DNA of 61,514 nt, counting the filler. It is 5 parts of 5 records of this genome, joined end to end, with 100 filler letters (N's around TTAATTAATTAA, not from the genome) between each part and the next. Parts side by side here need not be neighbours in the genome. Positions count along the whole stretch, not along the records: positions 1 to 18,799 come from SRR31156797_3759; 4 more parts are not named here. One strand, 5' to 3'. Of this stretch, positions 153 to 56,176 are shown one piece after another (positions within the stretch are counted from its first letter, which is position 1; every line of letters starts with the position of its first letter). The notes under the pieces are model-generated. The model did not search any database. It saw nothing but the letters and a program-made list of their open reading frames with translations, and was not told the DNA's origin. Made by a program: the position numbers and the translations under genes.

Positions 153-660
153 TTATAAATCTAAAGATTCATCTAGTCTGCCTTCAAATAATATCGCCAA
201 CTGTGAAATAGTTAAAGACCAATTCCAAATAGGCATTGTCCATTTTTTAGAGGCATTCTGAATACCCATATACAAAAGTTTAAGCAAACTATTTTTATTT
301 GGGAAAGCACCTTTAGTTTTTCTCACACTTTGTGTTCACTCTAAACTGTCTGTAAACGGATTCAATAATATTAGTGGAGATGATATGTCTAATCTCTTCA
401 TGATATTTAAAATATGCAGATAAATGTTCCCACTTGTTCCTCCATGACTTAATTACAATAGGATATTTTTTACCCCACTTAGATTCAAGGTTGTCAAGTT
501 CCATTTCAGGCAACCTCTTTAGAAACTGCCTGATAAACTAAACTTCAAGTCTTTCATTAACTCTTTTTGGTTTTTAGAGGCTACATATCTAATGGAGTTT
601 CTTATTTGATGTACAATACAGAGTTACACTTCTATTTTTGGAAAAATTGAATTAATTATT
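153..660 (-). pseudogene. IS256-family transposase, degraded C-terminal part
   Basis: Minus-strand segments read EV*LCIVHQIRNSIRYVASKNQKELMKDLK, KWGKKYPIVIKSWRNKWEHLSAYFKY..STNIIESVYRQFR and KTKGAFPNKNSLLKLLYMGIQNASKKWTMPIWNWSLTISQLAILFEGRL. These are IS256 motifs broken by a stop and frameshifts; the terminal stop is at 153-155. Confidence 0.88.
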
Positions 661-1592: not shown

Positions 1593-1673
1593 CTTTTCAT
1601 TTTTTGCATTAAAAAATGAAATAATAGCACTTTATTATCATAACTTTTCATTTTTTGATATAAAAAATGAAAT
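1593..1673. repeat. two tandem 30-bp palindromic repeats
   Basis: CTTTTCATTTTTTGCATTAAAAAATGAAAT (1593-1622) and CTTTTCATTTTTTGATATAAAAAATGAAAT (1644-1673); 27/30 identical, each with self-complementary arms. Confidence 0.8.
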
Positions 1674-2797
1674 TAATTTATCACAACAGTGTATCTTGTT
1701 CCTCTTCCAGAAGTTCCTTCAATTTGTTTAATGCAATCCCACTCAAGTAATTGTTTTAAATCATTTGAGGCAGTTGAAGTTGAAGCTTTAGTAATTGCAG
1801 CATATTTTGATTTTGTAATACCACCTTCAAAGTTTTCAACACCTTTATCAAGAACTTTATTTAAAACTTTAATTTGTCTTGCATTTAAATCTTTATCTCT
1901 ATGTGTATCCCAGAACTTAGTTTTTTCTAATATATACTGTATACCAGTTCTTGCTTCTTGCAAAGATTTTAATAAAGTTTTTAAAAAATACTCTATCCAT
2001 AATGTAATATCTAAAGGTTTATCTTTTTTTCTATATCCTGTAGTTTTTTCAAGTACTTCATAATAGTCTCTTTTTCTTTCATATATTGTCTTTGATATTG
2101 AATATATTTTTGAATAGTATGAATTCTCAACTCTAGCTAATGCATACTCAGATATTGTTCTTGCAATTCTTCCATTACCATCATCAAATGGATGTATTAT
2201 TAAAAACCATAGATGAGCAATAGCTGCTTTTATTAATCCATCATCTGTTTTATTGAACCATACAAAAAAACTAATCATTTCATCAGTAAGAGTATCTGAT
2301 GGAGGAGCTTCATAATAAACTATTTCTTTAGGTCCACCTCCACCTATTATCATCTCATAATCACCTCTTAATTCCCCTACATTGATTTTAACTCCTTCAT
2401 GGTTTCTTCCTGTTGGGAATATAGCACCATGCCATCTTTCAAGTCTTTCAATATCTAAATCATTATTGTAATTTGTACAGGCATCAAATAAAATACTTAC
2501 AAGGCCATCAGTTACATAATCAGTATTTGTAAACTCTTCAATACCTAATCTTTTTGCAATTGACTTTCTTACACTATCTCTATTTAAAAATTCTCCTTCT
2601 ATTGCAGAGCTACTGATAATTTCATCAGTTAAAGTTTCAGCTAATTTTTCTTGCATTTTTTCTTTTGAGGCAAATGAATATAATGCTGATAAAGAACCTT
2701 GTAAAAATGTAATCTCTTTTATTAGTGGATTAATACTTGTAGCATCAAACTCAAATGATGGGTAATTATCAAATTCCCATATCCATCTTTTACTCAT
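1673..2797 (-). CDS. Fic family protein (DUF4172-like N-terminus, Fic domain, C-terminal winged HTH)
   Basis: Canonical Fic motif HPFDDGNGRIAR, SSAIEGE inhibitory-type motif, N-terminal WIW..YPSF.FD, C-terminal TASNDLKQL..GRGTRY. Start placed at ATG 2797 (MSKRW) behind AAAGGT; the ORF track starts at 2848. Confidence 0.93.
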   Translation of the reverse strand: MSKRWIWEFDNYPSFEFDATSINPLIKEITFLQGSLSALYSFASKEKMQEKLAETLTDEIISSSAIEGEFLNRDSVRKSIAKRLGIEEFTNTDYVTDGLVSILFDACTNYNNDLDIERLERWHGAIFPTGRNHEGVKINVGELRGDYEMIIGGGGPKEIVYYEAPPSDTLTDEMISFFVWFNKTDDGLIKAAIAHLWFLIIHPFDDGNGRIARTISEYALARVENSYYSKIYSISKTIYERKRDYYEVLEKTTGYRKKDKPLDITLWIEYFLKTLLKSLQEARTGIQYILEKTKFWDTHRDKDLNARQIKVLNKVLDKGVENFEGGITKSKYAAITKASTSTASNDLKQLLEWDCIKQIEGTSGRGTRYTVVIN

Positions 2798-3099
2798 CAC
2801 TTTTACCTTTTTTAATGACATTATAATAGAAATTGTACGATAAAGCAAACTTTACGTATAAATATTTGTACGTAAAATAAATATTTTCGTATAAAAGAAT
2901 TTTTTTAAAGTTGAAATAGGTATTCTTTCATGATAGGAATTTTATAAAATTTTAAGAAGTCTTACTCTTCTTGTCAAATGAAGAACAAAATTACTCTTTT
3001 ATAACTTATAAAAATACAATTTATATGGCTATACAAGAGATTCAAACTGACTAAAATAAGATTTCATTTGACAATAGATAAAAATTCCATCTGATTTTT

Positions 3100-6000
3100 C
3101 TAATATTTTAATCTTTTTCTACTACCATAAAGGTTTGCTCTTAACTGATGATCATTTTTTTTACTTACTGATGAAATGTAATTTAGTCTATCTAATTTAT
3201 TAAGAAATTGTTCAATAAGTGGCTCTTTGGGAAAGACCTCGTTCCCTGCATTTATATTTTTTAAATATCGGTATCTCCCACCTAAACTTAAAAGTGTTTC
3301 ATCTATTAATTCAACGCTTATATTTTTATCTTCAATATCTACAAAAAGTTTTAACTTATCATCTTTTGATAATTTTAATTTTATAAAGAATAAATAAACA
3401 GTGTCATTAATTTTTTTGATATTTTCTTTAATTAAATTATTAAAAATCTCTTTGTAGAAATCTTCATCATCTTTAATTTCTAAGTCATTTGCAAATGTAT
3501 TAATAATATTAATCTTATTCTCTACTGAAAATTTAGAACTTTTTACTATTGCTTTAAAGTAATATGTATTATTAACAAAAGAACTAAAATTAGTTGTAAT
3601 ATCATCAGGTTTTGATTCAAGTAGTTTAATTGCTGCAACTTTATTAATAAATTCTACAGAAGAAAAAGTCTCTTTATTTATTTCTACAATTTGTAATTCA
3701 ATCATTTTTAATATTATAGGCATTGAAAAATTTTCTATATCAATTCTTTCAATTGATATAGTATCTTTCATTGCAGTGAGTAAATAATTATATGATTCAT
3801 CAGGTAATGTTATATGGTAAAGGATAAAGTCTGTAATTTTTTCAAATGAATCATCGTGCTTATTATTTAGTTCTTCATTTGTAAGGATATGTTTTGATAG
3901 AGTCTTACATACTTCTGCATTTGATAAGTAATTAATAAAAACTTCTTCATCAAATTTTTTTGTATAGTAATAGTCTAATAGATTATACCAAGAAGTTTCT
4001 GTTTTATATGATTTCAAAAGTAAATATTTATCTTCGTTATTGATTAAAGATAAATCATTTATTTTTATTTTCATTGAGTTAATAATATCAGACTTTAATA
4101 GAGGGTTTAAAGCAATATGATTTATAAGTTTTATGATGCCTTTTTCTTCTTTATTTAGTTCCTTTATTTTAAAATATATATTTAAGACATAATCATCTAT
4201 ATGTTTATTTATGAATCTTGTTAATTCATCATTAATAGTTTCTAATATTTCTAAACTAAATATTTTAATATTTCTAGGATCAACAAGATATCTATTAATT
4301 AGGATACTTTCTAGATTTGCTTTATTGAGCTTGAAATGCCAGTTTTCAACTAAATAATTATAGAGTTCATTAGAAATTTCACAATTTGGTAGGGAAGAAA
4401 AATTAATGTTAAAATGTTTAATGATATTTCTAAAATCAATATTATCTATAAAGCTCTTGAAAAATTCATCATTACCTTTATCTTCTAAATATCTAACTAC
4501 TCCATCTTCACTGTTTTTATTTAATAATGTGATTAAAGATTCATCTTGACAATCTACTAATAGTCTAAAAAAAGAATCTTTTTCAACTGAATTATCATCT
4601 ATAAAATCATCCCAAAAATCTTTTTGATATGAGATGATTTCTGTTAATAATTGTGATTTTTTTTCTTTGGTATTTTCCCATTCCATATATTCTTTTATAA
4701 AGTCAAATTCATTATCATAGTTAATTAAAGTTTTTATAACATTTCTTAAGTTTTCTTTATAATCATTTTTATTTTCTATAAGATGATTTATCAAATAAAA
4801 ATTTAATATAGACTTTGATGAGTAACTTTCTATTCTTATATCTTTTAAAAGGTTTGGAATATTTGTTAATTTATAATTATATGGGAAAATTTCTTTATCA
4901 TTTAAAACACTATGTAAAAAATTTAAATCTTCAATTTTTTCATCACCATCATAAAAATATGAGATATAGTTTTTATAGTGTTTATCAATGTAACCGAATC
5001 TAATTAGGTAAGATAACAGTTCATCTTCATGGATTTCTTTTTCCAAAACTGCATTTTTTGAAGTAAATGTAATTAAACCTTGTATTTCTAATGTTTTAAT
5101 TCTTTTAATTTCTTGTTGTATATTGAAAAGCTCTATTTTCAGTTCTTGCTCAGTTCTTTCATTCTTTTCTTCAATTATTTTCACACGCTCTAAATAAGTT
5201 TTATCAGGATTAATTTCTTTTTCTATATCTTGAAATGTAAAAGTTGAGTTTTCAAAGCCACCAGTTAAATTATAGTATTTATATTTACCTGCCGTGAATA
5301 ATAAATTAAAATCTGAATCTCTAATTATTTCATAAATTTGAATTTGTCTGTTATTCAGGTAGAAAGAACGTAAATTTTGTTGCTTTGTTAATATTTTACT
5401 AATGTAAAAAGTTTTTAATTCTAGTAAATTATTAAACTTTTCATTTTCTATATTCGTGAGTTTATTTTCAAATTCTTTTTCTTTAATTCTAAGATTACTA
5501 ATTATTTTATTAACAATAAGGTTTTTATTTTCAATAGTAAATAAGTTATATATTAAGCCTTCTTTTACATGAAGTTTCTCAAAATCTGCTGGCTTATAAT
5601 TTTTATATATAATAATTGCAAAAAGTTTATCTAAACTCAAATTTTCAATCTTTTCTAATTTTTCTCGATATTGCAAAAATTCATTAAAAACATTTTTTAA
5701 AAACCTCATATCATCGATAAATAAAGAAATATCTTTTAAAAATTGTTGATCCATCTCATCTAAAAGAGTTTTATTTTCTTTTCCTTCTTTTATTTCAATA
5801 ATAATACTATTAAACATCTCTTTTAGTTTTGTGTATGAGTTAGAAAAATTTATTACTGGTATTACAGGAATTAGGAAATCAAAGAACTTTGTTCTTTCTT
5901 TATTTATAAAAATATTGTCTCTAATTGCATAAATAAAGATAATTCCAGTTTCTTTTGCTTTTGGATTATTCTTCATTATTTGATTACTGCTATTTAATAG

Positions 6001-6870
6001 TTTATTAAGTTCTCTGAGCTTTATAAATATTTCTGTATTATCAAAACGATCTATATCTTCAATAACTAATATATTATATTGTGTAACTTCAAAGAAGTAT
6101 ATAATCTCATCAATATGTTCATTCAGTACAGAGAGGTTATTACTATTTTCACTTAAATCTATCTCTGGAGCTTGAAGACTTAATTTTTGTAATTTAATAT
6201 TTCCAGATTTTTTTATAAAAAAATATAAGAATGCAAATATACCAGTTGAAAAAATAAAACTAAACAAAAAAGTGAGCATTAAAAAGTTTTTAACATCAAA
6301 TAAATAATATATAAAAGTAAATGGCGAAAATAGTTCAATGACTGAAATAAACCAAGCTGATAGAATAATTGTTTTTAATGTAATATCTTTTATAGATCTA
6401 ATTCTTTTAAATCTAGAATTAGGTATCTCTTTATCACTAACTTTATAGAACATTTGTTGTAAAATACTTTTTTCTATCAGTTTGATATCTATCTCATTTT
6501 TATTAGATACTTTTTCTTCTTCTATATCTTTCTTTATTTCATTATTTTCATTGTTATCATTTTCAAGACCATTTTCTTTAAATGTAGCAAGTGAGATATT
6601 TAATATTTTATAATTATCCAAATAAGAGTACTCATTTTCAAAACTTTTTAGAATACTACTTTTTCCTGAACCATATGCGCCAGAAAGAGCTATATTAGTT
6701 ACATCTTTTTCATCTATAGCCCATTTAAGAGTTTTTATATAGTGAATATCATCAATGTTTTTTACAGGAGCAAGTGAATAAAATTTTAATTCATTCTTTT
6801 CATTTTCAATTTGTTCTTTTTTTATTTTCTTTTCATACCATTCCATAATAATTTTACAAAGCTTTATCAT
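3100..6870 (-). CDS. YobI/KAP-like P-loop NTPase with two TM helices inside the NTPase domain
   Basis: NIALSGAYGSGKSS (Walker A), ISLATF, IEKSILQQMFY, hydrophobic hairpin, VIEDIDRF (Walker B), ERTKFFDFLIPVIPVIN, DDMRFLKNVFNEF; long helical C-terminus. Confidence 0.85.
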   Translation of the reverse strand: MIKLCKIIMEWYEKKIKKEQIENEKNELKFYSLAPVKNIDDIHYIKTLKWAIDEKDVTNIALSGAYGSGKSSILKSFENEYSYLDNYKILNISLATFKENGLENDNNENNEIKKDIEEEKVSNKNEIDIKLIEKSILQQMFYKVSDKEIPNSRFKRIRSIKDITLKTIILSAWFISVIELFSPFTFIYYLFDVKNFLMLTFLFSFIFSTGIFAFLYFFIKKSGNIKLQKLSLQAPEIDLSENSNNLSVLNEHIDEIIYFFEVTQYNILVIEDIDRFDNTEIFIKLRELNKLLNSSNQIMKNNPKAKETGIIFIYAIRDNIFINKERTKFFDFLIPVIPVINFSNSYTKLKEMFNSIIIEIKEGKENKTLLDEMDQQFLKDISLFIDDMRFLKNVFNEFLQYREKLEKIENLSLDKLFAIIIYKNYKPADFEKLHVKEGLIYNLFTIENKNLIVNKIISNLRIKEKEFENKLTNIENEKFNNLLELKTFYISKILTKQQNLRSFYLNNRQIQIYEIIRDSDFNLLFTAGKYKYYNLTGGFENSTFTFQDIEKEINPDKTYLERVKIIEEKNERTEQELKIELFNIQQEIKRIKTLEIQGLITFTSKNAVLEKEIHEDELLSYLIRFGYIDKHYKNYISYFYDGDEKIEDLNFLHSVLNDKEIFPYNYKLTNIPNLLKDIRIESYSSKSILNFYLINHLIENKNDYKENLRNVIKTLINYDNEFDFIKEYMEWENTKEKKSQLLTEIISYQKDFWDDFIDDNSVEKDSFFRLLVDCQDESLITLLNKNSEDGVVRYLEDKGNDEFFKSFIDNIDFRNIIKHFNINFSSLPNCEISNELYNYLVENWHFKLNKANLESILINRYLVDPRNIKIFSLEILETINDELTRFINKHIDDYVLNIYFKIKELNKEEKGIIKLINHIALNPLLKSDIINSMKIKINDLSLINNEDKYLLLKSYKTETSWYNLLDYYYTKKFDEEVFINYLSNAEVCKTLSKHILTNEELNNKHDDSFEKITDFILYHITLPDESYNYLLTAMKDTISIERIDIENFSMPIILKMIELQIVEINKETFSSVEFINKVAAIKLLESKPDDITTNFSSFVNNTYYFKAIVKSSKFSVENKINIINTFANDLEIKDDEDFYKEIFNNLIKENIKKINDTVYLFFIKLKLSKDDKLKLFVDIEDKNISVELIDETLLSLGGRYRYLKNINAGNEVFPKEPLIEQFLNKLDRLNYISSVSKKNDHQLRANLYGSRKRLKY

Positions 6871-6883
6871 TTATCTTCACCTC

Positions 6884-9532
6884 TTAGTACTTTTTAATAG
6901 AGTTATAAATAAGTTTTTTTAGGTCATCATTAGCTACATTTTTTATATCATTAGGAGTTAAAATGCTCTGATATATATTCAAATAAAGTTCAGTGATTTT
7001 ATCAGACTTTATTTTTTTACGTAGAAAAGACTTATATGTTGTAGTTGTAACAATTAGAAGTAAAATTAATAATGTATTTAGAACATCACTTCCTATATTA
7101 TTTATAAAAGGAATTGTGATATCAATATAAGATTCAATTTTTGGTTTATAAATATAAAACAATAGTGTTAAAAATAACATACTTATAGGTATTACAAAAA
7201 GAATAAATTTTTTAAATTTTTCATCAAATAATATTCTTTGAATTATATTCAATCTTAGTTTAGGACGAATATATTTAACTAAATATTTATCAAAAACTTT
7301 AAAACTTTCTTGACTTTTATATTCTTTATCTTGAGAAAACAAATTTAAAAAATATGAAGATATAAAAGAAATAACCTCCTTAGATAATTTAATATCATAG
7401 ATATCAGATATTGATAAAGTTTCAAAAACAGAATTTGAAATTATTCTATAATATTCATCCTCTTGGTATATTTTATGGACAAAAAATAAAGCAAAGAGAA
7501 ATTCTAAAAAGGATTTATGAGCAAATTTAAAAGAGTCTGTTCCTGACAGATCCTTTACTAAAATTCCTGATGTTCTAACATCATTAAAAACAGTTTCAAT
7601 TGCATGTTCATAATCATTTAATCTTTTCTTTAATGGTATATTGTTCTCTTGGTCATGACTAATTTCATTTGGTATATCGTAATACAATTTAGAAACAGTT
7701 GTTTCTAAATCATTTTTATTTATTTGATTTGTATAGTTATTGTTTGAAATCATACTTGCAGCAATACCTATCATAAAATATTCTCTTTCATTTGTAGTTA
7801 AAGTTGGTGTTACACCAGTTTTTCCTATAGTACTAAGTTTTAATTCTTGTCTTTTGTAAGAGTGTTTTATAAAACTATTTATAACGGTTGAAGAATTAAT
7901 ATTTTCTTTGTCTAAAGTATTCCAGATTATACTTGTTTGATATAATGTTGAAGGTCTTGAAATTAAATCATTAAAGCTTGTATTATTTCTACTATTTACT
8001 AATTTTAAAATTTCATTTTTAATATATATATCAACATTTCTTAATGACAATTCAATTTGTTCTTTATTGAGAGGAAGCAAATGAATAGGTTTACTATAAA
8101 ATATTTGATTTGAATTTTTATCAAAATTTAAAAATCTTTTCATTTCTTCTGTGTCTAAAAATAAATTAGGTCTACCTGTAATGATTACTTTAGATTTTTC
8201 ATACCTCATAAATTCTAGTAATCTTTTAAAGTGATTGTGGCGAGTATACTTATCTCCTACTAAATCCATTTCATCAAAGCCTTCTAGTATAATTAGTAAT
8301 TTACCTGCATGTAACAACTTTTCAATTGCTTTAGCACTAATATCAAATTTACTTGACCATGAAGAGATAATACTTAAAATATTTTCATTTTTGGGACTTT
8401 TACCTCTTAATTCTATAATTATTGGTATACGGTTATATTCATTTTTTATCATTTCAAGTGCAATTTTTAAGGAAAGAACACTTTTCCCTTGTCCATATTC
8501 ACCAAGTAAAGATATATGATGCTCTATTTTAGGTTCTTTGACCCAGTTTAATAAATACTTTTCTAAATGATCTATCTCTTTTTCATCTTTTGTATCTATT
8601 AGTTTTCCTCTAGGTTCCACATAAGTATCTTGTAGTCTTAAATTATCTCCACTTGTAATTTCTTTTTTTAAAAATTGATCTTCTATATAATCAAAGTACT
8701 CACTAAAATCAATTAATGAATTTAGTATTAAATCTTGTGTTATATATTCAATTGTTATATCATTAAGTTGTTTTGTCTTTATCTCTTTAAGCTTTGTGTC
8801 TTTTTTTGTCATAACAATTATTTTTAAAAATTCTTTTTCTTTGTATGTTGTATTTAGAAAATCGATTTTCTTTATTATCTCAGCATCTTCAGGCATTGTT
8901 AACGTGCAATAAATTGCAATATCTTTATTTGAATATTTTGATATATATAATGATTCTATGCTATGCCAGTCTTCTTCAGAATTTATTTTAAATTGTTTTG
9001 ATTTTAAGCGTAATAGTTCTTTTGCTTCAGTATGCCAATCTTTATTTTCATCAAGATAGTCTAATTCTTCAGTAAAATTATTTTCTTTATCTCTATCTTC
9101 ATCTTTAATTATTTCAATTTTTTTTATTGTTGCACCATTAAAAAGAGCTTCCATAAAATCATAATTTCTATTTTTATTTTCTAATTCTAAATCTTTTTGA
9201 CTTTTACCACCATCCCATTTATTATAAATTGCTGAGATAAAAGAGCCAAGAAATATTAATACAACTACAGATAATGTTCTTCCTGTCCAATCAGTAGTTG
9301 GTACTTCTATATCATCAAGAGGTAATAAATTAAATAGTTTTATAACGGTTATTAATAAACTATTATCTGAGTATAAATGTGATATAACAAAAATACAGAA
9401 ACTAATAAATAAACCTGTAGCAAAAAAAGCAAATCTTTCTCTTGTATATACTTTTCTCCGTTTTATTATATAAATTGTAATAAGTGAAAAAATGATTAGA
9501 AAAATGAGTCCAATACTGAGAGTAAAAACCAT
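6884..9532 (-). CDS. membrane-anchored NACHT-domain NTPase
   Basis: LLGEYGQGKS (Walker A), RIPIIIELR, LIILEGFDEM (Walker B), IITGRP, FKFAHKSFLEFLFA (NACHT winged-helix motif). About 3 N-terminal and 2 C-terminal hydrophobic segments. Confidence 0.88.
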   Translation of the reverse strand: MVFTLSIGLIFLIIFSLITIYIIKRRKVYTRERFAFFATGLFISFCIFVISHLYSDNSLLITVIKLFNLLPLDDIEVPTTDWTGRTLSVVVLIFLGSFISAIYNKWDGGKSQKDLELENKNRNYDFMEALFNGATIKKIEIIKDEDRDKENNFTEELDYLDENKDWHTEAKELLRLKSKQFKINSEEDWHSIESLYISKYSNKDIAIYCTLTMPEDAEIIKKIDFLNTTYKEKEFLKIIVMTKKDTKLKEIKTKQLNDITIEYITQDLILNSLIDFSEYFDYIEDQFLKKEITSGDNLRLQDTYVEPRGKLIDTKDEKEIDHLEKYLLNWVKEPKIEHHISLLGEYGQGKSVLSLKIALEMIKNEYNRIPIIIELRGKSPKNENILSIISSWSSKFDISAKAIEKLLHAGKLLIILEGFDEMDLVGDKYTRHNHFKRLLEFMRYEKSKVIITGRPNLFLDTEEMKRFLNFDKNSNQIFYSKPIHLLPLNKEQIELSLRNVDIYIKNEILKLVNSRNNTSFNDLISRPSTLYQTSIIWNTLDKENINSSTVINSFIKHSYKRQELKLSTIGKTGVTPTLTTNEREYFMIGIAASMISNNNYTNQINKNDLETTVSKLYYDIPNEISHDQENNIPLKKRLNDYEHAIETVFNDVRTSGILVKDLSGTDSFKFAHKSFLEFLFALFFVHKIYQEDEYYRIISNSVFETLSISDIYDIKLSKEVISFISSYFLNLFSQDKEYKSQESFKVFDKYLVKYIRPKLRLNIIQRILFDEKFKKFILFVIPISMLFLTLLFYIYKPKIESYIDITIPFINNIGSDVLNTLLILLLIVTTTTYKSFLRKKIKSDKITELYLNIYQSILTPNDIKNVANDDLKKLIYNSIKKY

Positions 9533-9824: not shown

Positions 9825-10076
9825 TTAAATATTTTCAAAAAAATCAGTAACATCTACTTCTAGGACATAAGCAATTTTAACTAAATGCTCAATATTAAAG
9901 TGTTTATTCTGAAGACAAATTTCTGAATGAGATATTACTCCTACAGCTTTATGCCCTATTGCTAAAGCTAAAGCAAGTTGAGAAATCCCCTTTTTTTCTC
10001 TAATTCTTTTTACGTTAGATCCAATTGTTTTATATTTTTCATTCATTTTTTCTTTTGAAATATCACAATTTTTCAA
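9825..10076 (-). CDS. XRE-family HTH transcriptional regulator
   Basis: IGSNVKRIREKKGISQLALALAIG..FNIEHLVKIAYVLEVDVTDFF pattern. Confidence 0.88.
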   Translation of the reverse strand: MKNCDISKEKMNEKYKTIGSNVKRIREKKGISQLALALAIGHKAVGVISHSEICLQNKHFNIEHLVKIAYVLEVDVTDFFENI

Positions 10077-10082
10077 TATATA

Positions 10083-10149
10083 ACCTATCCATAGTTAGTT
10101 TTTATAAGTATAATTGCTATAGAATAGTTTTACAACTATCTATAGTTAG
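10083..10149. promoter_or_regulatory. paired palindromic operators in a divergent promoter
   Basis: ACCTATCCATAGTTAG (10083-10098) and AACTATCTATAGTTAG (10134-10149), 14/16 identical, core AACTAT-N2-ATAGTT; each lies next to a divergent gene start. Confidence 0.6.
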
Positions 10150-10156
10150 GTAAAAA

Positions 10157-10762
10157 ATGAAAACTTATATTTATAATTTTGAATTAATTGAATTTAAAAT
10201 CTCAATTTTAGAAGAACTTAAAAAAGAGTTATTGCTTACAAAAGATTTTAAAATAAGAAAAAATTCTAAAGCATATAATGAAATTGACAAAATAATTTTA
10301 AGCTTAAATGTTAAGATTGATGGATTATCAAGTGAATTATCAAATTCCATTAAAGAGGATATTTTCTCTACCATAAAATTAGAAACAAGTACTCTCGAAA
10401 GTCTTTTTGAATTAAAAGATGAACTTGATATAGATTCTGTAGCAGAATTATTAAAATTATTAGTGATGACATATAAAGAATATTTTATATTTGACAAATT
10501 AACTAAAATTAATCATGTAAATTTAAATAGAAATTTAGAACATGAGCTGAATAAAACAAATTTTTATATTTGTACAAAAGCTGATAATTTAAAAAATAAA
10601 ATTTTATATAAACTTGATGACATAAAAATATATGAGAATATTGAATATATTAATTTTGATGAATTCAAGGAGTATATTATGGGGAATGAAGTATTTTATA
10701 TTTCTTGTAGATTTACATTACAAGAAATTGATAAATTTATTGCTATATGGAAGAGTTATTAA
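10157..10762 (+). CDS. hypothetical protein
   Basis: 201-aa ORF with AGGT RBS, divergent from the XRE gene. Confidence 0.65.
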   Translation: MKTYIYNFELIEFKISILEELKKELLLTKDFKIRKNSKAYNEIDKIILSLNVKIDGLSSELSNSIKEDIFSTIKLETSTLESLFELKDELDIDSVAELLKLLVMTYKEYFIFDKLTKINHVNLNRNLEHELNKTNFYICTKADNLKNKILYKLDDIKIYENIEYINFDEFKEYIMGNEVFYISCRFTLQEIDKFIAIWKSY

Positions 10763-10817: not shown

Positions 10818-10836
10818 AATTGACATTTTGTCAATT
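10818..10836. promoter_or_regulatory. palindrome upstream of the recombinase operon
   Basis: AATTGACA-TTT-TGTCAATT, perfect 8-bp arms containing TTGACA, about 55 nt before the integrase start. Confidence 0.55.
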
Positions 10837-10892: not shown

Positions 10893-12206
10893 ATGGTTAT
10901 TGCAATTAATAATGGTTTTGAAATATCAACATACTTTAATAATGAAGTAATTGATTTAGTAGATTCATATAAATGGTCAATTTGGATGATAGAAGTTCAA
11001 AATTATTCAATTAACACTGTAGAAAGTTTTATGGCTTCTATGAATAGGTTTTGGATTTACAGTTTATATACTTATCCAAAAAAGAATCAAGGTTTTACTG
11101 ATTATTTATCAGGATATCGCAGAGCACTACTTAATGGCTATGAAATATTAGTTAAAAGAGAAAATGAACAATTTGATGAAACTTTATATATAAGTATAAG
11201 TGGATCAATTCCTAAAAAAAAGTCTACTATAAATAAAGAGATAGCAGGAATAAATCTATATTTCAAGTATACAGAAGAATATGATTTAATTACTAATACA
11301 AAGTATATTAATTATTTATATGAAAAACAAAAAAGTTCACATAGTTTTTTAAGTTCTATACAAATAAAAAAATCAAATATGTATTTAAAAACATTTGGGG
11401 AGAAACAAAAATATTTAAAGCCATATAAAATAGTAAAAACAGCTGGAGATGGAATAAAATATTTCCCTTTTGAATTATTTGATAAACTATTAAAAATAAG
11501 TAAGCCAAGAGAAAAATTAATTTACATTTTATGTGGTATTTGTTCTGCACGTTTGGGACAAGCTTTGAATTTGACTTTATATGATTTAGATTATGACAAG
11601 TTAGATGTTTGGCTATTAAACCCTCAATCAGATTCAACAAATGGCATATTTGAAACTTCACGGAGGAAATGGTTATTAGAAAAATATCATATTGATACAA
11701 ATATAACCAACCCTCACAATGGACCTGATTTAAAATTTAAGTATCCAATACCTTTAAATCATAACTCATTGTACTGGTTAGATGAAGATAAATACAAAAA
11801 AATATTTTTCGATACTTTAATTGAATATCAAAAATCAGATACTTATTTATCTGAATTAAAACGTTTTCCTATTCATCCCTTTCTCTTTGTAACAAAAACT
11901 GGACATAGATTAAGAGCACGTTCAGTACAGAAGTCATTCAGTAGAAGTCTTGAAAAACTTCAAAAATATAACAAAAAGTATAATCTTAAATCCCTATCAA
12001 TGCACAGCTTACGTCATATGTTTGGACATGCAATGGCAGAACATTATGTTCAAACTGGTGATGAATCACTAATTTATGTTTGTCAAAATGCTATGGGTCA
12101 TTCTAGTTTAGATTCAACTCTAGTATATTTTAAAATTTCTCCCGAAAGCATTAAAAATAAAATTAAAGAAGTTTCATCAACCTTATACGATTTGAAAGGA
12201 AATTAA
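10893..12206 (+). CDS. tyrosine recombinase (GmtY/IntA-like)
   Basis: Catalytic set present: SARLGQALNL (R), MHSLRH (HxxR), AMGHSS (H), TLVY (Y); AAGGAG RBS. Confidence 0.9.
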   Translation: MVIAINNGFEISTYFNNEVIDLVDSYKWSIWMIEVQNYSINTVESFMASMNRFWIYSLYTYPKKNQGFTDYLSGYRRALLNGYEILVKRENEQFDETLYISISGSIPKKKSTINKEIAGINLYFKYTEEYDLITNTKYINYLYEKQKSSHSFLSSIQIKKSNMYLKTFGEKQKYLKPYKIVKTAGDGIKYFPFELFDKLLKISKPREKLIYILCGICSARLGQALNLTLYDLDYDKLDVWLLNPQSDSTNGIFETSRRKWLLEKYHIDTNITNPHNGPDLKFKYPIPLNHNSLYWLDEDKYKKIFFDTLIEYQKSDTYLSELKRFPIHPFLFVTKTGHRLRARSVQKSFSRSLEKLQKYNKKYNLKSLSMHSLRHMFGHAMAEHYVQTGDESLIYVCQNAMGHSSLDSTLVYFKISPESIKNKIKEVSSTLYDLKGN

Positions 12207-12207
12207 A

Positions 12208-12795
12208 ATGAAAAAAGACAATTTGAAAAATTATAGGGACAAAAGAGTAAAGAAAAATACTCTTTTACTTAAGCGTGCAATTGAACATATTATAAAGTTT
12301 GATGGCACGATTAGTATGTCAACAGTTGCAAAAGTTACGAGAGAAATAGCTAGTTTTGAGAATGGGGAAAAGGGATTAACGCTTTCTGCAATTTCAAAAA
12401 ATAAAAATTACCGTTCTTTAATACAAGAAGCTGAAAATAAAATAAATAATTCGACTAGCAATGTCTTAAATTTAAATATATTATCTCAGGGAGATGCGAG
12501 GTTACAACTACATGGTTTAAGAGTAGAAAATGAAAAAATGAAGGATGAAATTAAAATTTTAAGGCATAAATTGAAAACAACAGAATTTGAAGATAGTTGT
12601 AGCAGTTATAGAAAAATAGTTATAAATGAAGATGAAAATATTGCATTGATATCGATAAAAAACCTAATCAATATCTTAATGGAAGAAGAAATTGCATATT
12701 TAGATAATAAAACTATGGATTTAAAACTAGCAACTTTTGATTCACTTTTACTAAATGGAAAATTAGTAAAAAAATTTTTAGGAGATAAAAAATGA
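12208..12795 (+). CDS. recombinase-associated helical protein (GmtX/Srap/TnpC-like)
   Basis: ISMSTVAKVT..GLTLSAISKNKNYRSLI followed by coiled coil LRVENEKMKDEIKILRHKL; 1-nt gap to the upstream recombinase and 4-nt overlap with the downstream one. Confidence 0.6.
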   Translation: MKKDNLKNYRDKRVKKNTLLLKRAIEHIIKFDGTISMSTVAKVTREIASFENGEKGLTLSAISKNKNYRSLIQEAENKINNSTSNVLNLNILSQGDARLQLHGLRVENEKMKDEIKILRHKLKTTEFEDSCSSYRKIVINEDENIALISIKNLINILMEEEIAYLDNKTMDLKLATFDSLLLNGKLVKKFLGDKK

Positions 12796-15638
12796 TTGTA
12801 GAATATGTAAATAATTTACCAGACTTAAACTTATCGGATTCGTTTATCATTTTAAAGAGTGCTTTCTCAACTTTTACTGAGGATTGGCTAAATTTTCAAG
12901 ATTTACATATAAGTTCATTTTCTAAAAATTTAACGGATAAAAAATTGAAAGGTTTACATCAATATAAACACGGTTCTAGAGCATTTCTATTGCTAGATTT
13001 TTATATTCAAGAATTTGTAGGATTACACGATAGTTTTTTGGTTTTAGAAAGCTTTTTTGATAATGAAAGCTATAAATTTGTTAATAAAATGAATTATTTG
13101 GAATTGATTGAATTATATATTTCAGGAAATAAGTTAAAACTTAAAAATGGATATTCAATAAATTCTATTATAGATAAATTTTTTATATATCAATGGTCTA
13201 ATAATAAACTATTATTTCCTTTAGGAATTTTTTTAAATGGCTTTCAACGAAAAAAAGGTTGGGAAAAGTTTGTAGTTAAAAAAAACACTTTTTTAGAAAA
13301 GTGTATTATAAAATTAAAAAATAAAGGAACATCTTCTACATCTTCTACTGTTAGATATAGTTTTTTGTCTTATATTATAACAGCAACAACTTGGAAAAAC
13401 ATATCACAAATTAATGAAAAGTCATTAATAGAAATTAAAGATTTTTTAACTCAAAAATATAAAGATAATAAAAGACGAAAAGATAGCATTACATTATCAA
13501 TTAATGATATACGTTATCTCCTTATTGATAATGGTAGGGATGACATAGTGCATCCTAATAAATTAAAAAAGAAATTTCAAGAATCATCTGAAGTAAGTTA
13601 TAGTAGATTTGATTGGATTGATATAAACTTATATCCAAATTTTTTACAAATAAAAGATGATATAAAAAAGTATTGTCAAGAACTTAGATCTGAAGGTATT
13701 AAACTTTCATCCATTGATGGTAAACTAGTTTCATTAAATCACTTTTGTAAATTTTTATATAAACATTATAAATCTTCAGAACTTAATGAGAATCTCGTAA
13801 ATAAACTTTATGATGTTAATGATTTTAATTCATTTCATTTTTATTTAAAAAATAAAAAATTAAATAAAGATAGGGAAGTTAATATTTTTAAAGAAACGAG
13901 TCGTTTTTTAGACTTTTTAGGAATTTATACCCAATTCGCTAAAAATAATACTCCAAGATATAAAGGCATTAATAAAACATCATCAAGAAGTGCTATGCCT
14001 AGGGAAATGTTATTACATTTAATAGATATAGTAAAAAATAGACCTCCAAAAAAACCTGTATATTGGGATAAGAATAAGGCAAGTCTTCATTGGTGGAAAC
14101 ATAAGGATGTTTATCCAGTTTTTCCATTAATGGCATTACTTCACTATTATATACCATTACGAGGTGCACAAATACGAAATTTATGTAGAGATATTTCTTT
14201 TAAGATTAATCCTATTACACAAAGGATAGATTCAATTATTATTAATACAGATAAGAATGTTAATAGAAAAGAACTACAAGAAATACCGTGTGTTTGGGAT
14301 GATCTACAAATATTTAAAGAGTTCATCAATTGGCATAAAAAGTATTTCCCTTATTTGCCAAAGGTCAGATATAATAATGATGAAAATTCTGCTTTTAAAG
14401 AGTTTACACCTTTAATGATTATTGATGGTAATAATCAACCCTTAAGTCAACAAACTTATTTTACTTACCATAAAAGAATTTTATCTCAATACCAAATTGA
14501 GATGAATGAAAAGTATAGATTAAATGAAATTGAATTTTGTCCAAAGGTTGCATGGTTTAAAGATGAAAAAAAAGTCTTTTTCAAGAATATTGACGAATTA
14601 AATAACTCTAATGATAATTATCTAAATCTAAATGTTGAAGTTGCATATGATGTTCATTCCATTCGAGTAACTGGAATTACTAGATATCTAGATGCCGGAT
14701 TGGGATTACATTTAATTACACTACTCAGTGGACATACAGACTTAAATACAATTATTAGAGTTTATGTCAAGCTCACAAAAGAAGAACAAATGAAAAAGTT
14801 AAAAAGCTCCATTAATGGTTTGTTTTTTGGTGAGAAAAAAACATTAGAAAAAAATTTAAAAGAATTTGTATTTGATGAATTGTCCTCAAATGTACCTAGT
14901 TCTACTAATAATCATTATGGAAAAAAAATAGAAGCATTAGTAGAAGAAAATTCTCTTTTTTCATTACATAGAAAAGATACTTTTGCTAATAAATCTAAAA
15001 ATGTATTTGAAATAGGCACAGAAATTGCGAAAAAGATACATCCCTCTTTGTGGCAGACGCATATTTTTGGGATATGTCCAGGTGTTTTATGTGAAAGTGG
15101 ACGAGAAAGAAAATGTAGTTTATGTCCATATTTAATAACAGGAAAACTGTTTATGCATGGAGTGATTCATCAGACAAATTTAACTTTCGCTAAATTTTAT
15201 AGACTTAATAAAGAAATGCAAGAAGAAAAGGAAAAAGGATATAACTCTTATGCAAAGGCACAAGAATTGGAAATTATAATGGAAGAAATATTAGGTTGGT
15301 CAGAAATTTTAAATAAGATTGAAAAAAATCTTTCATTGGATACTAATAGTCTAGGAACTCTAAATAAATCTATTTTTACCTATGATTCTCAAGATGAGAC
15401 AATAGCCTACCTTGAAAATGCATATGATGCAAAAGCCTTGGGTGTTGAACATGACAATTTTGGATTAAAGGTTCTAACTATAAAAGCGGCAAAACTATTA
15501 GCAGTGAATGGAGAAATAGGAAAATGTTTAAAATTTTTAGATTCAAATGAACAAACAATAGATTTTTTACTTTCTTATTATAAAAAGGATAAAAAAATAT
15601 CATTAATTAGTGGAGTATCAGAACTGATTGAAAAGTAA
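12792..15638 (+). CDS. large tyrosine recombinase (GmtZ/VPA1269/IntB-like)
   Basis: PLRGAQIRNL (R), INTDK (K), VHSIRVTGIT (HxxR), LSGH, RVY (Y), then Cys cluster CPGVLC..CSLCPYLITG and a helical tail; ATGA overlap with the upstream gene. Confidence 0.82.
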   Translation: MIVEYVNNLPDLNLSDSFIILKSAFSTFTEDWLNFQDLHISSFSKNLTDKKLKGLHQYKHGSRAFLLLDFYIQEFVGLHDSFLVLESFFDNESYKFVNKMNYLELIELYISGNKLKLKNGYSINSIIDKFFIYQWSNNKLLFPLGIFLNGFQRKKGWEKFVVKKNTFLEKCIIKLKNKGTSSTSSTVRYSFLSYIITATTWKNISQINEKSLIEIKDFLTQKYKDNKRRKDSITLSINDIRYLLIDNGRDDIVHPNKLKKKFQESSEVSYSRFDWIDINLYPNFLQIKDDIKKYCQELRSEGIKLSSIDGKLVSLNHFCKFLYKHYKSSELNENLVNKLYDVNDFNSFHFYLKNKKLNKDREVNIFKETSRFLDFLGIYTQFAKNNTPRYKGINKTSSRSAMPREMLLHLIDIVKNRPPKKPVYWDKNKASLHWWKHKDVYPVFPLMALLHYYIPLRGAQIRNLCRDISFKINPITQRIDSIIINTDKNVNRKELQEIPCVWDDLQIFKEFINWHKKYFPYLPKVRYNNDENSAFKEFTPLMIIDGNNQPLSQQTYFTYHKRILSQYQIEMNEKYRLNEIEFCPKVAWFKDEKKVFFKNIDELNNSNDNYLNLNVEVAYDVHSIRVTGITRYLDAGLGLHLITLLSGHTDLNTIIRVYVKLTKEEQMKKLKSSINGLFFGEKKTLEKNLKEFVFDELSSNVPSSTNNHYGKKIEALVEENSLFSLHRKDTFANKSKNVFEIGTEIAKKIHPSLWQTHIFGICPGVLCESGRERKCSLCPYLITGKLFMHGVIHQTNLTFAKFYRLNKEMQEEKEKGYNSYAKAQELEIIMEEILGWSEILNKIEKNLSLDTNSLGTLNKSIFTYDSQDETIAYLENAYDAKALGVEHDNFGLKVLTIKAAKLLAVNGEIGKCLKFLDSNEQTIDFLLSYYKKDKKISLISGVSELIEK

Positions 15639-16940: not shown

Positions 16941-17067
16941 TTTATATCCTTTTAATAGTTTAGTGTTTTTTTATAATTTTTTTTTCAAATTAAGTTGATT
17001 TCTTGAAAATATTGAAATAATAGACTTTATAAATATTCAAGTTAATATTCATGGCATAGAAAAGTTT

Positions 17068-18351
17068 AAAAAAGCAGGTACGCACTTTGATTTGCCAATA
17101 TCTTTATTGATATGTTTATATGAAGAAAAGAAAGTCAGCTTTGAGAATTTTCATATCTTTGGTGAATTATCTTTAAATGGTGAAATAAAAGATAGCTTTT
17201 CAATATTTCCTATAATATTGTCATTGAAAAAACAGAATAAGATAACAAATGTTTTAGTTTGTGAAGAAACAGCTAAAAAAATATCAAAAATACCAAATAT
17301 AAATATTTATAGTGTTAAAAATCTAAATGAAGCAATAGAGTTTTTTAAAAATGACGAGAAGAAAAAATATCTATTTAAAACCCAAAATCTTAATTCAAAT
17401 AAAATAAAAATCAACAATAAAGATTTTTATTACACTTGTGAGTATCCTTTGGATTTTTTAGATATAAAAGGTCAAGTTAATGCAAAAAGAGCAGCACTTA
17501 TAGCAGCTGCAGGCAATCACAACATAATCTACGAGGGAAGCCCTGGATGTGGTAAATCAATGATTGCAAAAAGATTGCCTTATATAATGGCTCCCATGAG
17601 TTTGGAAGAGATTTTAGAAGTTGCCAAGCTTCAAGCTCTAAATCTAAAAGAACCAGACTTTAAACCAGTAAGAGTACATCGTACTCCACATTGTACTAGT
17701 ACAAAAGCTTCAATCTTAGGAGGAAATAGTTTAGGAGAAGTTGCCTTAGCAAATAATGGGATGCTATTTTTCGATGAGTTACCGCACTTTAGTTCATCTA
17801 TACTAGAGGCATTGAGAGAACCTTTACAAGACAATAAACTTCTAGTGAGTCGTGCAAGTAGTAAAATAATCTATGATACGAAGTTTTTATTTATAGCTGC
17901 AATGAACCCATGTCCATGTGGAAATCAGTTACTTACAACAAAATCTTGTAGATGTAATGAACTAGAAATAAAAAGGTATAAGTCAAGATTATCAGAACCC
18001 TTTCTTGATAGAGTTGATTTATATGTTGTGATGAATGAATCAAATATAAAAGATAAAGTAGGTTTATCCTCAAAACAGATTCATGAAAATGTGATTGAAG
18101 CTTTTAAGATGCAAGTTTTAAGAGGTCAAGATGAATTAAATGGAAAGTTAGATGATGAAAAAATAAAAGAGTTTTGTATTTTGAATAAAGAATCAGAAGA
18201 GTTATTAGAACTAGCTTCACAAAATTTTGATTTGTCTTTTAGAAGTATAAATAAAGTACTAAAAGTATCTAGAACAATTGCGGATATTGAAGGTTTTGAA
18301 AAGATACAAAAGCAACATTTAATTGAAGCTTTAAGTTATAGAAGAAGATAA
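17068..18351 (+). pseudogene. comM: ComM/YifB Mg-chelatase-like AAA+ ATPase, 5'-truncated
   Basis: Frame reads KKAGTHFDLPI from 17068, then GELSLNGEI, IKGQVNAKRAALIAAAGNHN, GSPGCGKS, FFDELPHF, AAMNPCPCG, LSEPFLDRVD, EALSYR. An in-frame TGA at 16996-16998 leaves no room for the normal N-terminal ~60 residues. Confidence 0.88.
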
Positions 18352-18799: not shown

Positions 18800-18899
18800 N
18801 NNNNNNNNNNNNNNNNNNNNNNNNNNNNNNNNNNNNNNNNNNNTTAATTAATTAANNNNNNNNNNNNNNNNNNNNNNNNNNNNNNNNNNNNNNNNNNNN
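18800..18899. other. artificial contig spacer
   Basis: N-run + TTAATTAATTAA (stops in six frames) + N-run; composition and taxonomy change across it. Confidence 0.98.
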
Positions 18900-28697: not shown

Positions 28698-28797
28698 NNN
28701 NNNNNNNNNNNNNNNNNNNNNNNNNNNNNNNNNNNNNNNNNTTAATTAATTAANNNNNNNNNNNNNNNNNNNNNNNNNNNNNNNNNNNNNNNNNNNN
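28698..28797. other. artificial contig spacer
   Basis: Same N/TTAATTAATTAA/N linker. Confidence 0.98.
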
Positions 28798-39222: not shown

Positions 39223-39322
39223 NNNNNNNNNNNNNNNNNNNNNNNNNNNNNNNNNNNNNNNNNNNNTTAATTAATTAANNNNNNNNNNNNNNNNNNNNNN
39301 NNNNNNNNNNNNNNNNNNNNNN
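39223..39322. other. artificial contig spacer
   Basis: Same linker. Confidence 0.98.
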
Positions 39323-56076: not shown

Positions 56077-56176
56077 NNNNNNNNNNNNNNNNNNNNNNNN
56101 NNNNNNNNNNNNNNNNNNNNTTAATTAATTAANNNNNNNNNNNNNNNNNNNNNNNNNNNNNNNNNNNNNNNNNNNN
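56077..56176. other. artificial contig spacer
   Basis: Same linker. Confidence 0.98.

Follow-up and report, generated by a model that had tools for sequence, protein, structure and literature searches.

Three adjacent genes on contig SRR31156797_3759 raise the question of what kind of mobile element combines a small and a very large tyrosine recombinase in Campylobacterota. The genes lie in a 61.5-kb stretch of DNA (hereafter the window) in which N spacers, present as pairs of 44-N runs, link successive contigs. They are in its first contig (positions 1-18799, G+C approximately 24%) and encode a small tyrosine recombinase (IntS, 437 aa), an accessory protein (Acc, 195 aa) and a large tyrosine recombinase (IntL, 948 aa; Table 1). 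A preliminary description made from the sequence alone had interpreted them as a coupled operon representing a Campylobacterota lineage of the class that includes the gamma-mobile-trio (GMT) islands and the strand-biased circularizing elements (SEs). The comparisons reported here indicate that the trio is very probably the core transposition module of a family of site-specific, non-conjugative integrative islands of Campylobacterota that carry defence genes.

Conservation of the trio and features of its proteins

Open reading frame (ORF) calls confirmed that the genes are tightly coupled: the IntS and Acc genes are separated by a single nucleotide (TAA-A-ATG), and the Acc and IntL genes overlap by four (ATGA). 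An alignment-based scan of species-representative genomes identified nine strong loci, all in Campylobacterota metagenome-assembled genomes and all with the order IntS-Acc-IntL (9/9); scanning the genome contigs with a single IntL sequence returned no loci. The trio is present in a set of 14 loci, comprising these nine, two copies in genome G302 (one in the gene comM and a second elsewhere), G390, G377 and a Sulfurospirillum plasmid. Of 27 strong metagenome loci, 24 likewise have the complete trio, and the remaining three are cut or distant. The recurrence of the same trio in the same order indicates that the arrangement is not due to chance, and it bears out both the joint conservation of the three genes in Campylobacterota and the intermediate position of the accessory gene, as anticipated from the window. 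Among 401 sampled genomes of the class, seven matched at E <= 1e-20 (five strong; two distant, with longer proteins).

Judged from their sequences, IntS and IntL are catalytically complete tyrosine recombinases. Residues R220, H371, R374, H403 and Y412 are invariant in all 11 aligned IntS sequences, and R457, H622, R625, H648 and Y658 are invariant among 26 aligned IntL sequences, as are the four cysteines of the C-terminal cluster of IntL (C762, C767, C775 and C778). Thus, the catalytic set and the cysteine cluster recognised earlier in single sequences hold across the family. IntS is assigned by Pfam (Phage_integrase, 42.2 bits); IntL reaches 21.3 bits for the same domain, below the 27.1-bit cut-off, and its fold is recognised through an AlphaFold2 model (mean pLDDT 74.1; poor over residues 663-784). 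The best Foldseek matches of this model in PDB are the Tn1549 integrase, XerH, IntI and Cre (E approximately 2e-4, approximately 400 columns). The predicted structure of IntL therefore resembles tyrosine recombinases, and the reservation that a 948-aa protein might lack such a fold finds no support in the model.

Acc has 13 homologues, which are 30-38% identical to the window protein, and matches no Pfam or NCBIfam family and no PDB sequence significantly (best E 0.35). Its AlphaFold2 model consists of a helical N-terminal domain, a long helix (residues 94-124) and a small C-terminal domain; Foldseek returned nothing below 1e-3 and no recombinase match for this model. The earlier characterisation of Acc as a helix-turn-helix (HTH) and coiled-coil protein is weakly supported by the helical model and its long helix; residues 5-84 resemble the HTH domains of TnsD and TetR with Z scores of 5-6.6, below a trustworthy level.

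In a 5.8-billion-protein index, IntL has 46 homologues that range from 77% to 28% identity. Where source names are given, they are Sulfurimonas and Aliarcobacter, and most of the records are labelled 'hypothetical protein', so that such islands go unrecognised in annotation. A HMMER search of 1.84 billion representatives with an IntL profile matched 632 clusters at E <= 1e-3, 126 at E <= 1e-10 and 72 at E <= 1e-30, and no IntL relative was found among 50,697 phage records or in viral contigs. Some IntL-like proteins are longer (1168-1726 aa; P0057-P0111): the profile matched their C-terminal approximately 900 residues, and they have long additional N-terminal regions, one of them with a weak hemerythrin-domain match. 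The Sulfurospirillum trio (27-40% identical) is on a 200-kb plasmid (NZ_CP118374.1, 3734-18145) and has an IS21 element between IntS and Acc. It is flanked on both sides by 'DNA/RNA non-specific endonuclease' fragments, which suggests a different target gene.

Islands inserted in comM

Complete elements were delimited in five genomes (G001, G002, G003, G302 and G390) and are 13,739 to 26,133 bp long (13.7-26.1 kb). In all five, the trio separates two parts of comM; G004 and G377 have an intact comM, indicating that other targets exist. A comM fragment also abuts the trio in 14 of the 19 metagenome loci with sequence upstream of IntS, and likeness to comM ends exactly at TTCTA in 12 of 13 metagenome junctions inspected (L057, the same contig as L001, was omitted). 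Insertions fall at four sites, numbered on the intact ComM of G004 (Table 1).

In these relatives, 188-354 bp separate the left end from the IntS gene downstream of it. The left end starts with TTCTA(A/G)G (TACTAAT in G390), and the right end is its inverted counterpart, C(T/C)TAGAA (GTTAGAA in G390). Left and right ends agree at 8-10 of their first 12 nt in all five complete elements. In 14 of 18 loci the motif is repeated, in direct orientation, 97-109 bp inward from the left end.

The cargo of the relatives includes pairs of a type III-like methylase and a ResIII helicase, CBASS (SMODS and SAVED), PDC-M60, a DdmD-like protein and NACHT-trypsin; the candidates in the window are Tmn, SoFic and NACHT. 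Domain and defence family scans of the islands revealed no conjugation or phage structural genes, extending to the relatives what had been noted for the window, and no Xis-like genes were seen in the elements. This family moves restriction-modification, CBASS, Tmn, NACHT and candidate systems among Sulfurimonas, Arcobacter/Aliarcobacter and relatives, and inactivates comM.

comM is a multi-family hotspot in this class. A 15-kb island interrupts it at approximately codon 285-292 in L047 (G382:C1:1410100-1425600) and L016 (G005); no IntS or IntL homologue is present in this island, and three of its genes, one for Endonuclease I and two small ones, also occur in islands with the trio. Endonuclease I (EndA-like) genes occur in four comM-inserted islands (Table 1) and are 46-88% identical to one another; they recall the nucleases of integrated elements in Campylobacter jejuni, which reportedly inhibit transformation. 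In L046 (G259:C1:207700-225300), comM contains a 17-kb insertion at approximately codon 220 in which the two recombinase genes are split between the island ends: one end has a gene for a distant IntS-like protein (498 aa; 24-29% identity to the IntS proteins of the family), the other a gene for an IntL-like protein of 1537 aa.

Junction asymmetry and a genome with two copies

The two junctions of the complete comM copies differ. Left junctions continue directly in the comM frame, and the 6 bp beside them encode the expected ComM residues: D/E and a hydrophobic residue at site 72, S/T/Q and E at site 42, and E-G at site 229. The hexamers that flank the right end are foreign in all five copies (TCGCCA, TTTGTG, TTTTTA, CACGAC and TTAAAT). 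In 5/5 cases ComM aligned best after removal of the element together with these 6 bp, with a score approximately 10 points higher and one gap block fewer than after removal of 0, 3 or 9 bp.

The two copies in G302 are 99.985% identical across 13,740 aligned columns, and their likeness starts and stops exactly at the predicted ends, TTCTAAGG... and ...CTTAGAA. For the copy in comM, the left junction is GATATC|TTCTAAGG and the right one CTTAGAA|TTTGTG; for the second copy, which lies close to the 3' end of a Metallophos gene, the corresponding sequences are ACTTCA|TTCTAAGG and CTTAGAA|GATATC. As read from these junctions, the left hexamer of the comM copy, GATATC, was carried to the right junction of a new copy and the donor was retained; a given hexamer would match by chance once in 4096. 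Transfer in the reverse direction was considered and excluded because the right spacer of the comM copy is not ACTTCA. This pair is thus a natural experiment, and it supports the carry-over of 6 bp with a retained donor copy.

Relative to the comM copy (L039), the second copy (L050 1512-15250) shows two gap openings, one of which splits IntL into ORFs of 867 and 214 aa; therefore, the daughter copy may already be inactive. A further complete element, L052 (134-14598; 14.5 kb), comes from a metagenome and occupies codon 72 of comM in the opposite orientation, with the palindrome GAGCTC as its native hexamer.

Relationship to known elements

According to the available part of the GMT preprint (10.1101/2023.03.28.534373), islands such as VPaI-6 of Vibrio parahaemolyticus form circles, for which all three genes are needed, insert at specific sites, are replicative by experiment and carry defence cargo. 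The same part lists some Betaproteobacteria and a few Gram-positive families among the hosts and predicts that more distant trios may exist elsewhere. The statement that this class had been described from Gammaproteobacteria thus needs correction for GMT; it stands for the tfp-srap synteny blocks of SEs, which are confined to Gammaproteobacteria in the available text of PMC10214605. A term search of the GMT preprint gave no mention of Campylobacter, Tn554 or strand-biased.

For comparison, a betaproteobacterial plasmid locus with the layout Y-Z-X was used, whose proteins match the GmtY model with 230.9 bits and the GmtZ model with 262.9 bits and are followed by GmtX. IntL aligns with its VPA1269/GmtZ-type protein with an hhalign probability of 97.6% (E 3.1e-12, 604 columns), and the alignment takes in the motif YDVHSLRV and the cysteine motif GLCPG..C...CSLC.Y.ITG. 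IntS aligns with the GmtY-type neighbour with a probability of 95.7% (E 8.9e-9). Nine matches of the IntL profile with lengths of 1118-1179 aa were sampled (E 2e-15 to 9e-10), and all of them are GmtZ relatives; some intermediate proteins match GmtZ weakly. These observations sustain the proposed membership in the GMT/SE class for the two recombinases; the likeness does not extend to the third gene, and the thresholds of the established models are not reached. IntS remains below the GmtY cut-off (NF040693; 53.5 bits, E 2.4e-14, against 340), IntL does not match the GmtZ model (NF047926, cut-off 600 bits) at E <= 0.01, and Acc has no NCBIfam match to GmtX (NF040692), its gene lying between the recombinases and not after GmtZ.

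In organisation, the islands resemble GMT in having two tyrosine recombinases, one small and one very large, and a third protein of small size, in placing this module at one island border in the relatives (left end 188-354 bp from IntS), in using lineage-specific intragenic or intergenic sites, in carrying anti-phage cargo and in spreading by what appears, from the two copies in G302, to be replicative transfer. They differ in the order Y-accessory-Z instead of Y-Z-X, in an Acc with no detectable relation to GmtX, in their Campylobacterota hosts, in comM as dominant target, in scores far under the NCBIfam cut-offs, and in inverted repeats borne by the element, whereas the GMT circle is described without flanking repeats (available part of 10.1101/2023.03.28.534373). 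The trio is thus an apparent case of the more distant trios predicted in that preprint, in a different phylum.

The likeness to SEs (SE-6283 and SE-6945) is drawn from their published description. Both have an ordinary and a large recombinase with the RHRY residues, imperfect terminal inverted repeats, few targets and no mobilisation genes. In the available text of PMC10214605, the 6 bp beside the intA-proximal end of an SE enter the circle and go beside the distal end on insertion, while the central 6 bp of the target finish beside the proximal end; a 6-bp footprint is noted there for Tn554 also. The five complete comM copies and the GATATC transfer in G302 follow this rule, with an exception in length at L052. 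The core of an SE comprises four genes (intA, tfp, intB and srap), of which tfp encodes a protein with a recombinase fold but without RHRY. The middle protein here is a helical 195-aa protein with no recombinase match, in agreement with the earlier view that no equivalent of this second SE gene (CDS2) is present; gene comparisons across the loci recognised no srap and no fourth conserved core gene other than a CI-like HTH protein. The family ties together two literatures, recombinases homologous to GmtY and GmtZ being found with the 6-bp junction rule of SEs and Tn554.

As described in the available text of PMC10214605, Tn554 (tnpA-tnpB-tnpC) also has an ordinary and a large recombinase and a small third protein, is site-specific, and shows a 6-bp footprint and imperfect inverted termini. 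By that description it is set apart through its order A-B-C, its Firmicutes (staphylococcal) host and its different target. Islands in comM are known elsewhere: the AbaR islands of Acinetobacter likewise disrupt it but are other element types in Gammaproteobacteria (available part of PMC12378983). According to the same part of this competence-parasite review, disruption of comM is recurrent among mobile elements and may protect them from removal by transformation; it names no Campylobacterota case. Because related recombinases target four comM motifs, 'why comM?' becomes a question that can be tested in a second phylum. Literature searches found no described Campylobacterota family into which the trio would fall, and within that scope the corresponding reservation in the preliminary description can be set aside; an entry for Campylobacterota or comM may still stand in the supplementary datasets that accompany the GMT and SE papers. 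Thus, among two-recombinase elements of the GMT/SE/Tn554 type, the trio family is a Campylobacterota branch that is distant, very divergent and rearranged, and that is specialised on comM.

A wider proposal is tentative, and we consider it somewhat less probable than not: GMT, SE, Tn554 and the Campylobacterota islands would form one ancient copy-out superfamily sharing the 6-bp carry-over, in which the Campylobacterota branch swapped in an unrelated accessory protein and radiated onto at least four comM motifs. Such a radiation would imply selection for the knock-out of comM, and hence for escape from removal by transformation, and not for any one DNA sequence; a palindromic 6-bp overlap, such as GAGCTC in L052, would permit insertion in either orientation.

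Proposed mechanism and alternatives

In the mechanism that we favour, IntS and IntL would act with Acc on the imperfect terminal inverted repeats (TTCTA(A/G)G... and ...C(T/C)TAGAA). Joining of the ends would produce a circle whose 6-bp spacer is a copy of the DNA flanking the element on its left, IntS-proximal side; insertion would then place the native 6 bp of the target next to the left end and the spacer brought along next to the right end. The copy at the donor site would be retained, a copy-out/paste-in mode like that of SE, GMT and probably Tn554. The four conserved comM motifs are the preferred targets, so that insertion also disables a helicase that aids natural transformation, and the CI-like protein would probably repress the module. 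The circle, the strand bias, the roles assigned to Acc and the CI-like protein, and a selective value of disrupting comM would all be expected by analogy with SE, GMT and the comM-targeting elements of other bacteria.

Tn916 and Tn1549 have a single Int with Xis and conjugation genes, and they are cut out to leave an empty site; non-identical flanks of 6-7 bp are a hallmark of their coupling sequences. The flanks seen here (6 bp, once 7 nt) could thus also result from cut-and-paste transposition of this kind, in which staggered 6-7 bp cuts would give a heteroduplex circle and an emptied donor, with neither strand bias nor replication. The top structural match of IntL, the Tn1549 integrase, points the same way, and a heteroduplex spacer in Tn916 excision is mentioned in the Fig. 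2 legend of PMC10214605, as far as that source is available. We regard this alternative as improbable: the native 6 bp are IntS-proximal in all five complete comM copies and in the second copy of G302, the donor copy is still present in G302, the islands have two recombinases and no Xis-like or conjugation genes, and the homologous GMT islands are replicative by experiment (available part of 10.1101/2023.03.28.534373). An ordinary integrase island, in which one recombinase joins attP and attB through an identical core and the other proteins serve dimer resolution, inversion or regulation, is more improbable still. Many islands do have extra Xer-like genes, and Pfam sees a generic Phage_integrase domain alone; however, the element flanks show inverted terminal repeats and unequal 6-bp sequences instead of a duplicated core, the three genes overlap and were never found apart in the genome and metagenome loci, and each of the three GMT genes is required for circle formation (available part of 10.1101/2023.03.28.534373).

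Several observations weigh against the copy-out mechanism or against the kinship on which it draws. Replication is deduced from one genome with two copies, in which a second acquisition would look identical, and cut-and-paste after passage of the replication fork would also produce such a pair. Neither a circular junction nor an empty donor site was observed in assembled contigs of public runs, which are blind to rare forms; the joints listed for these contigs extend over 21-27 nt per side, within AT-rich DNA, and were taken for noise. To restore comM in L052, 7 nt and not 6 have to be removed at the right end. The foreign spacers at codon 72 (TCGCCA, TTTGTG, TTTTTA and AAGTTT) are unlike the 6 bp of that site, which implies, if the rule holds, that the previous sites were often elsewhere. 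Acc matches GmtX with an hhalign probability of 0.06%, and pLDDT is below 50 over residues 748-784 of IntL, the region of the cysteine cluster. Two further points concern the window: its trio lies 1.4 kb from the right end, whereas that of the relatives is at the left end, and seven different searches found no left end in it.

The copy in the window

The right junction of the window copy is well defined. Its right end (...ATTCATGGCATAGAA) stops at 17061, and the comM sequence begins again at 17068 with the register seen in G003. Over positions 13-30, counted from the tip, the window end agrees with that of the G001 element in 16 of 18 places (manual count). In a tblastn comparison, the window comM is 72.6% identical to intact ComM, true likeness beginning at KKAGTHFDL. 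The intervening AAGTTT may be a footprint carried over from a previous site. Contigs of two other public runs match the window to the right of 17066, that position included, and not to its left; one carries 85 unlike letters there, as would be the case in relatives whose sequence differs at this point and is probably intact comM.

To the left of the trio there is neither comM 5' sequence nor a recognisable end, and tblastn with intact ComM found no comM 5' part anywhere in the window. A pattern search for left ends gave 4 matches against 2.09 expected, an inverted-repeat search AT-rich noise, and blastn-short with six known left ends just AT-rich matches of 10-17 nt. Smith-Waterman scores were all within the null from shuffles, the 26-nt left-end consensus had no match with up to three mismatches, and the IntS upstream region aligned with that of G390 at a score of 85.5 against a null median of 89. 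The best candidate from a mismatch scan with the right end (11/12) is inside the NACHT ORF and was judged to be due to chance. Two candidates picked by eye, at 10702 (TTCTTGTAG) and 9684 (TTCTAAAT), are flanked by neither comM nor a right end and are not claimed.

Because no left end was found and the trio is 1.4 kb from the right end, the window copy may be rearranged or immobile. It could be a stranded remnant whose left end was lost by rearrangement, tandem accretion or recombination between copies, and whose locus no longer moves. The left-end alignments no better than shuffles, the lack of comM 5' sequence or a right end to the left of the trio, and the IS256-family transposase remnants near the edge of the contig are all compatible with such a loss. 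We nevertheless consider it less likely than not, since the three ORFs are full length with their catalytic residues and the right junction is intact. In L007, moreover, the left flank is followed by small genes and a divergent regulator before the trio begins, so that the left end of the window copy may simply lie further left, and the source contig (23,251 nt) continues 4.7 kb beyond window position 1. An element extending left past the contig, with cargo upstream of the trio, is possible, as are two islands in tandem at this locus.

Other features of the window

In relatives, homologues of the CI-like gene downstream of IntL (Table 1) take one of three positions: behind IntL, close to the right end, or upstream of the trio in divergent orientation. 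The product of the CI-like gene is a probable regulator of the element. The 126-aa ORF that adjoins the right end has counterparts at the matching place in G302 and G390, where minus-strand ORFs of 126 or 138 aa show no detectable similarity to it; the order CI-like gene, small minus-strand ORF, right end is common to the window and G390, the closest relative with a complete element. Upstream of the trio, the HTH_3 gene and the 201-aa ORF (9825..10762) are probably island DNA, and the defence cargo (1673..9532) may be part of the same element as the trio. The G002 element contains an intact 401-aa transposase of the IS256/Mutator family, part of which shares 69% identity with one of the two fragments in the window. 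Along the contigs of the window, G+C changes from approximately 0.24 to 0.45, 0.50 and then approximately 0.25-0.3, and the pieces may come from different organisms within one bin.

Table 1. Features of the window, comM insertion sites and Endonuclease I genes of related islands
Feature	Position	Strand	Remarks
IS256/Mutator-family transposase remnants, two ORF fragments	153-513	-	left edge of contig
SoFic-like Fic protein	1673-2848	-	PADLOC SoFic 140 bits
Tmn/YobI-like ATPase	3100-6870	-	PADLOC Tmn 245 bits; Pfam YobI-ATPase 361.6 bits
NACHT protein	6884-9532	-	NACHT 26.3 bits, slightly below cut-off
HTH_3 protein	9825-10076	-	Pfam; homologues inside other elements (G390, L051, L071)
ORF, 201 aa	10157-10762	+	ORF call
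Perfect palindrome AATTGACA-TTT-TGTCAATT	10818..10836	+	57 bp upstream of IntS ATG
IntS, small tyrosine recombinase, 437 aa	10893..12206	+	ORF call; Pfam Phage_integrase; distant GmtY relative
Acc, accessory protein, 195 aa	12208..12795	+	ORF call; no family in Pfam or NCBIfam
IntL, large tyrosine recombinase, 948 aa	12792..15638	+	invariant Cys4 cluster; distant GmtZ/VPA1269 relative
CI-repressor-like HTH protein, 254 aa	15694..16458	+	Pfam Phage_CI_repr 27.8 bits
ORF adjoining right end, 126 aa	16560..16940	-	no family matched
Right (recombinase-distal) terminal repeat	17031..17061	+	ends ...CATAGAA at 17061
Putative 6-bp spacer AAGTTT	17062..17067	+	placed by register with five complete elements and from the G302 pair
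comM 3' part, gene interrupted	17068..18351	+	from about codon 73; TIGR00368 positions 89-499 only
N spacers	18800-18899, 28698-28797, 39223-39322, 56077-56176
comM site 42	after E42		..IKE|SKDR..
comM site 72	after I72		..PSEI|KKTGTHFDL
comM site 229	after G229		..ILLEG|SPGCGKS, immediately ahead of Walker A loop
comM site ~306	within ..GALF|FDELP
Endonuclease I gene, L040	2210-2935
Endonuclease I gene, L041	4197-4700
Endonuclease I gene, L043	3114-3824
Endonuclease I gene, L047	10621-11328

A scan for promoters and terminators was uninformative, with 49 promoter-like sites in the window against 63.6 in shuffles. The palindrome upstream of IntS (Table 1) is a candidate operator, to judge from its symmetry and position: its pattern has one match in the window and none in 100 shuffles, and the form AATT(G/C)ACA-N3-TGT(C/G)AATT is also found 66 bp upstream of IntS in the distant element L002 (7901-7919). 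Looser palindromes containing GTGAATT are present in other elements.

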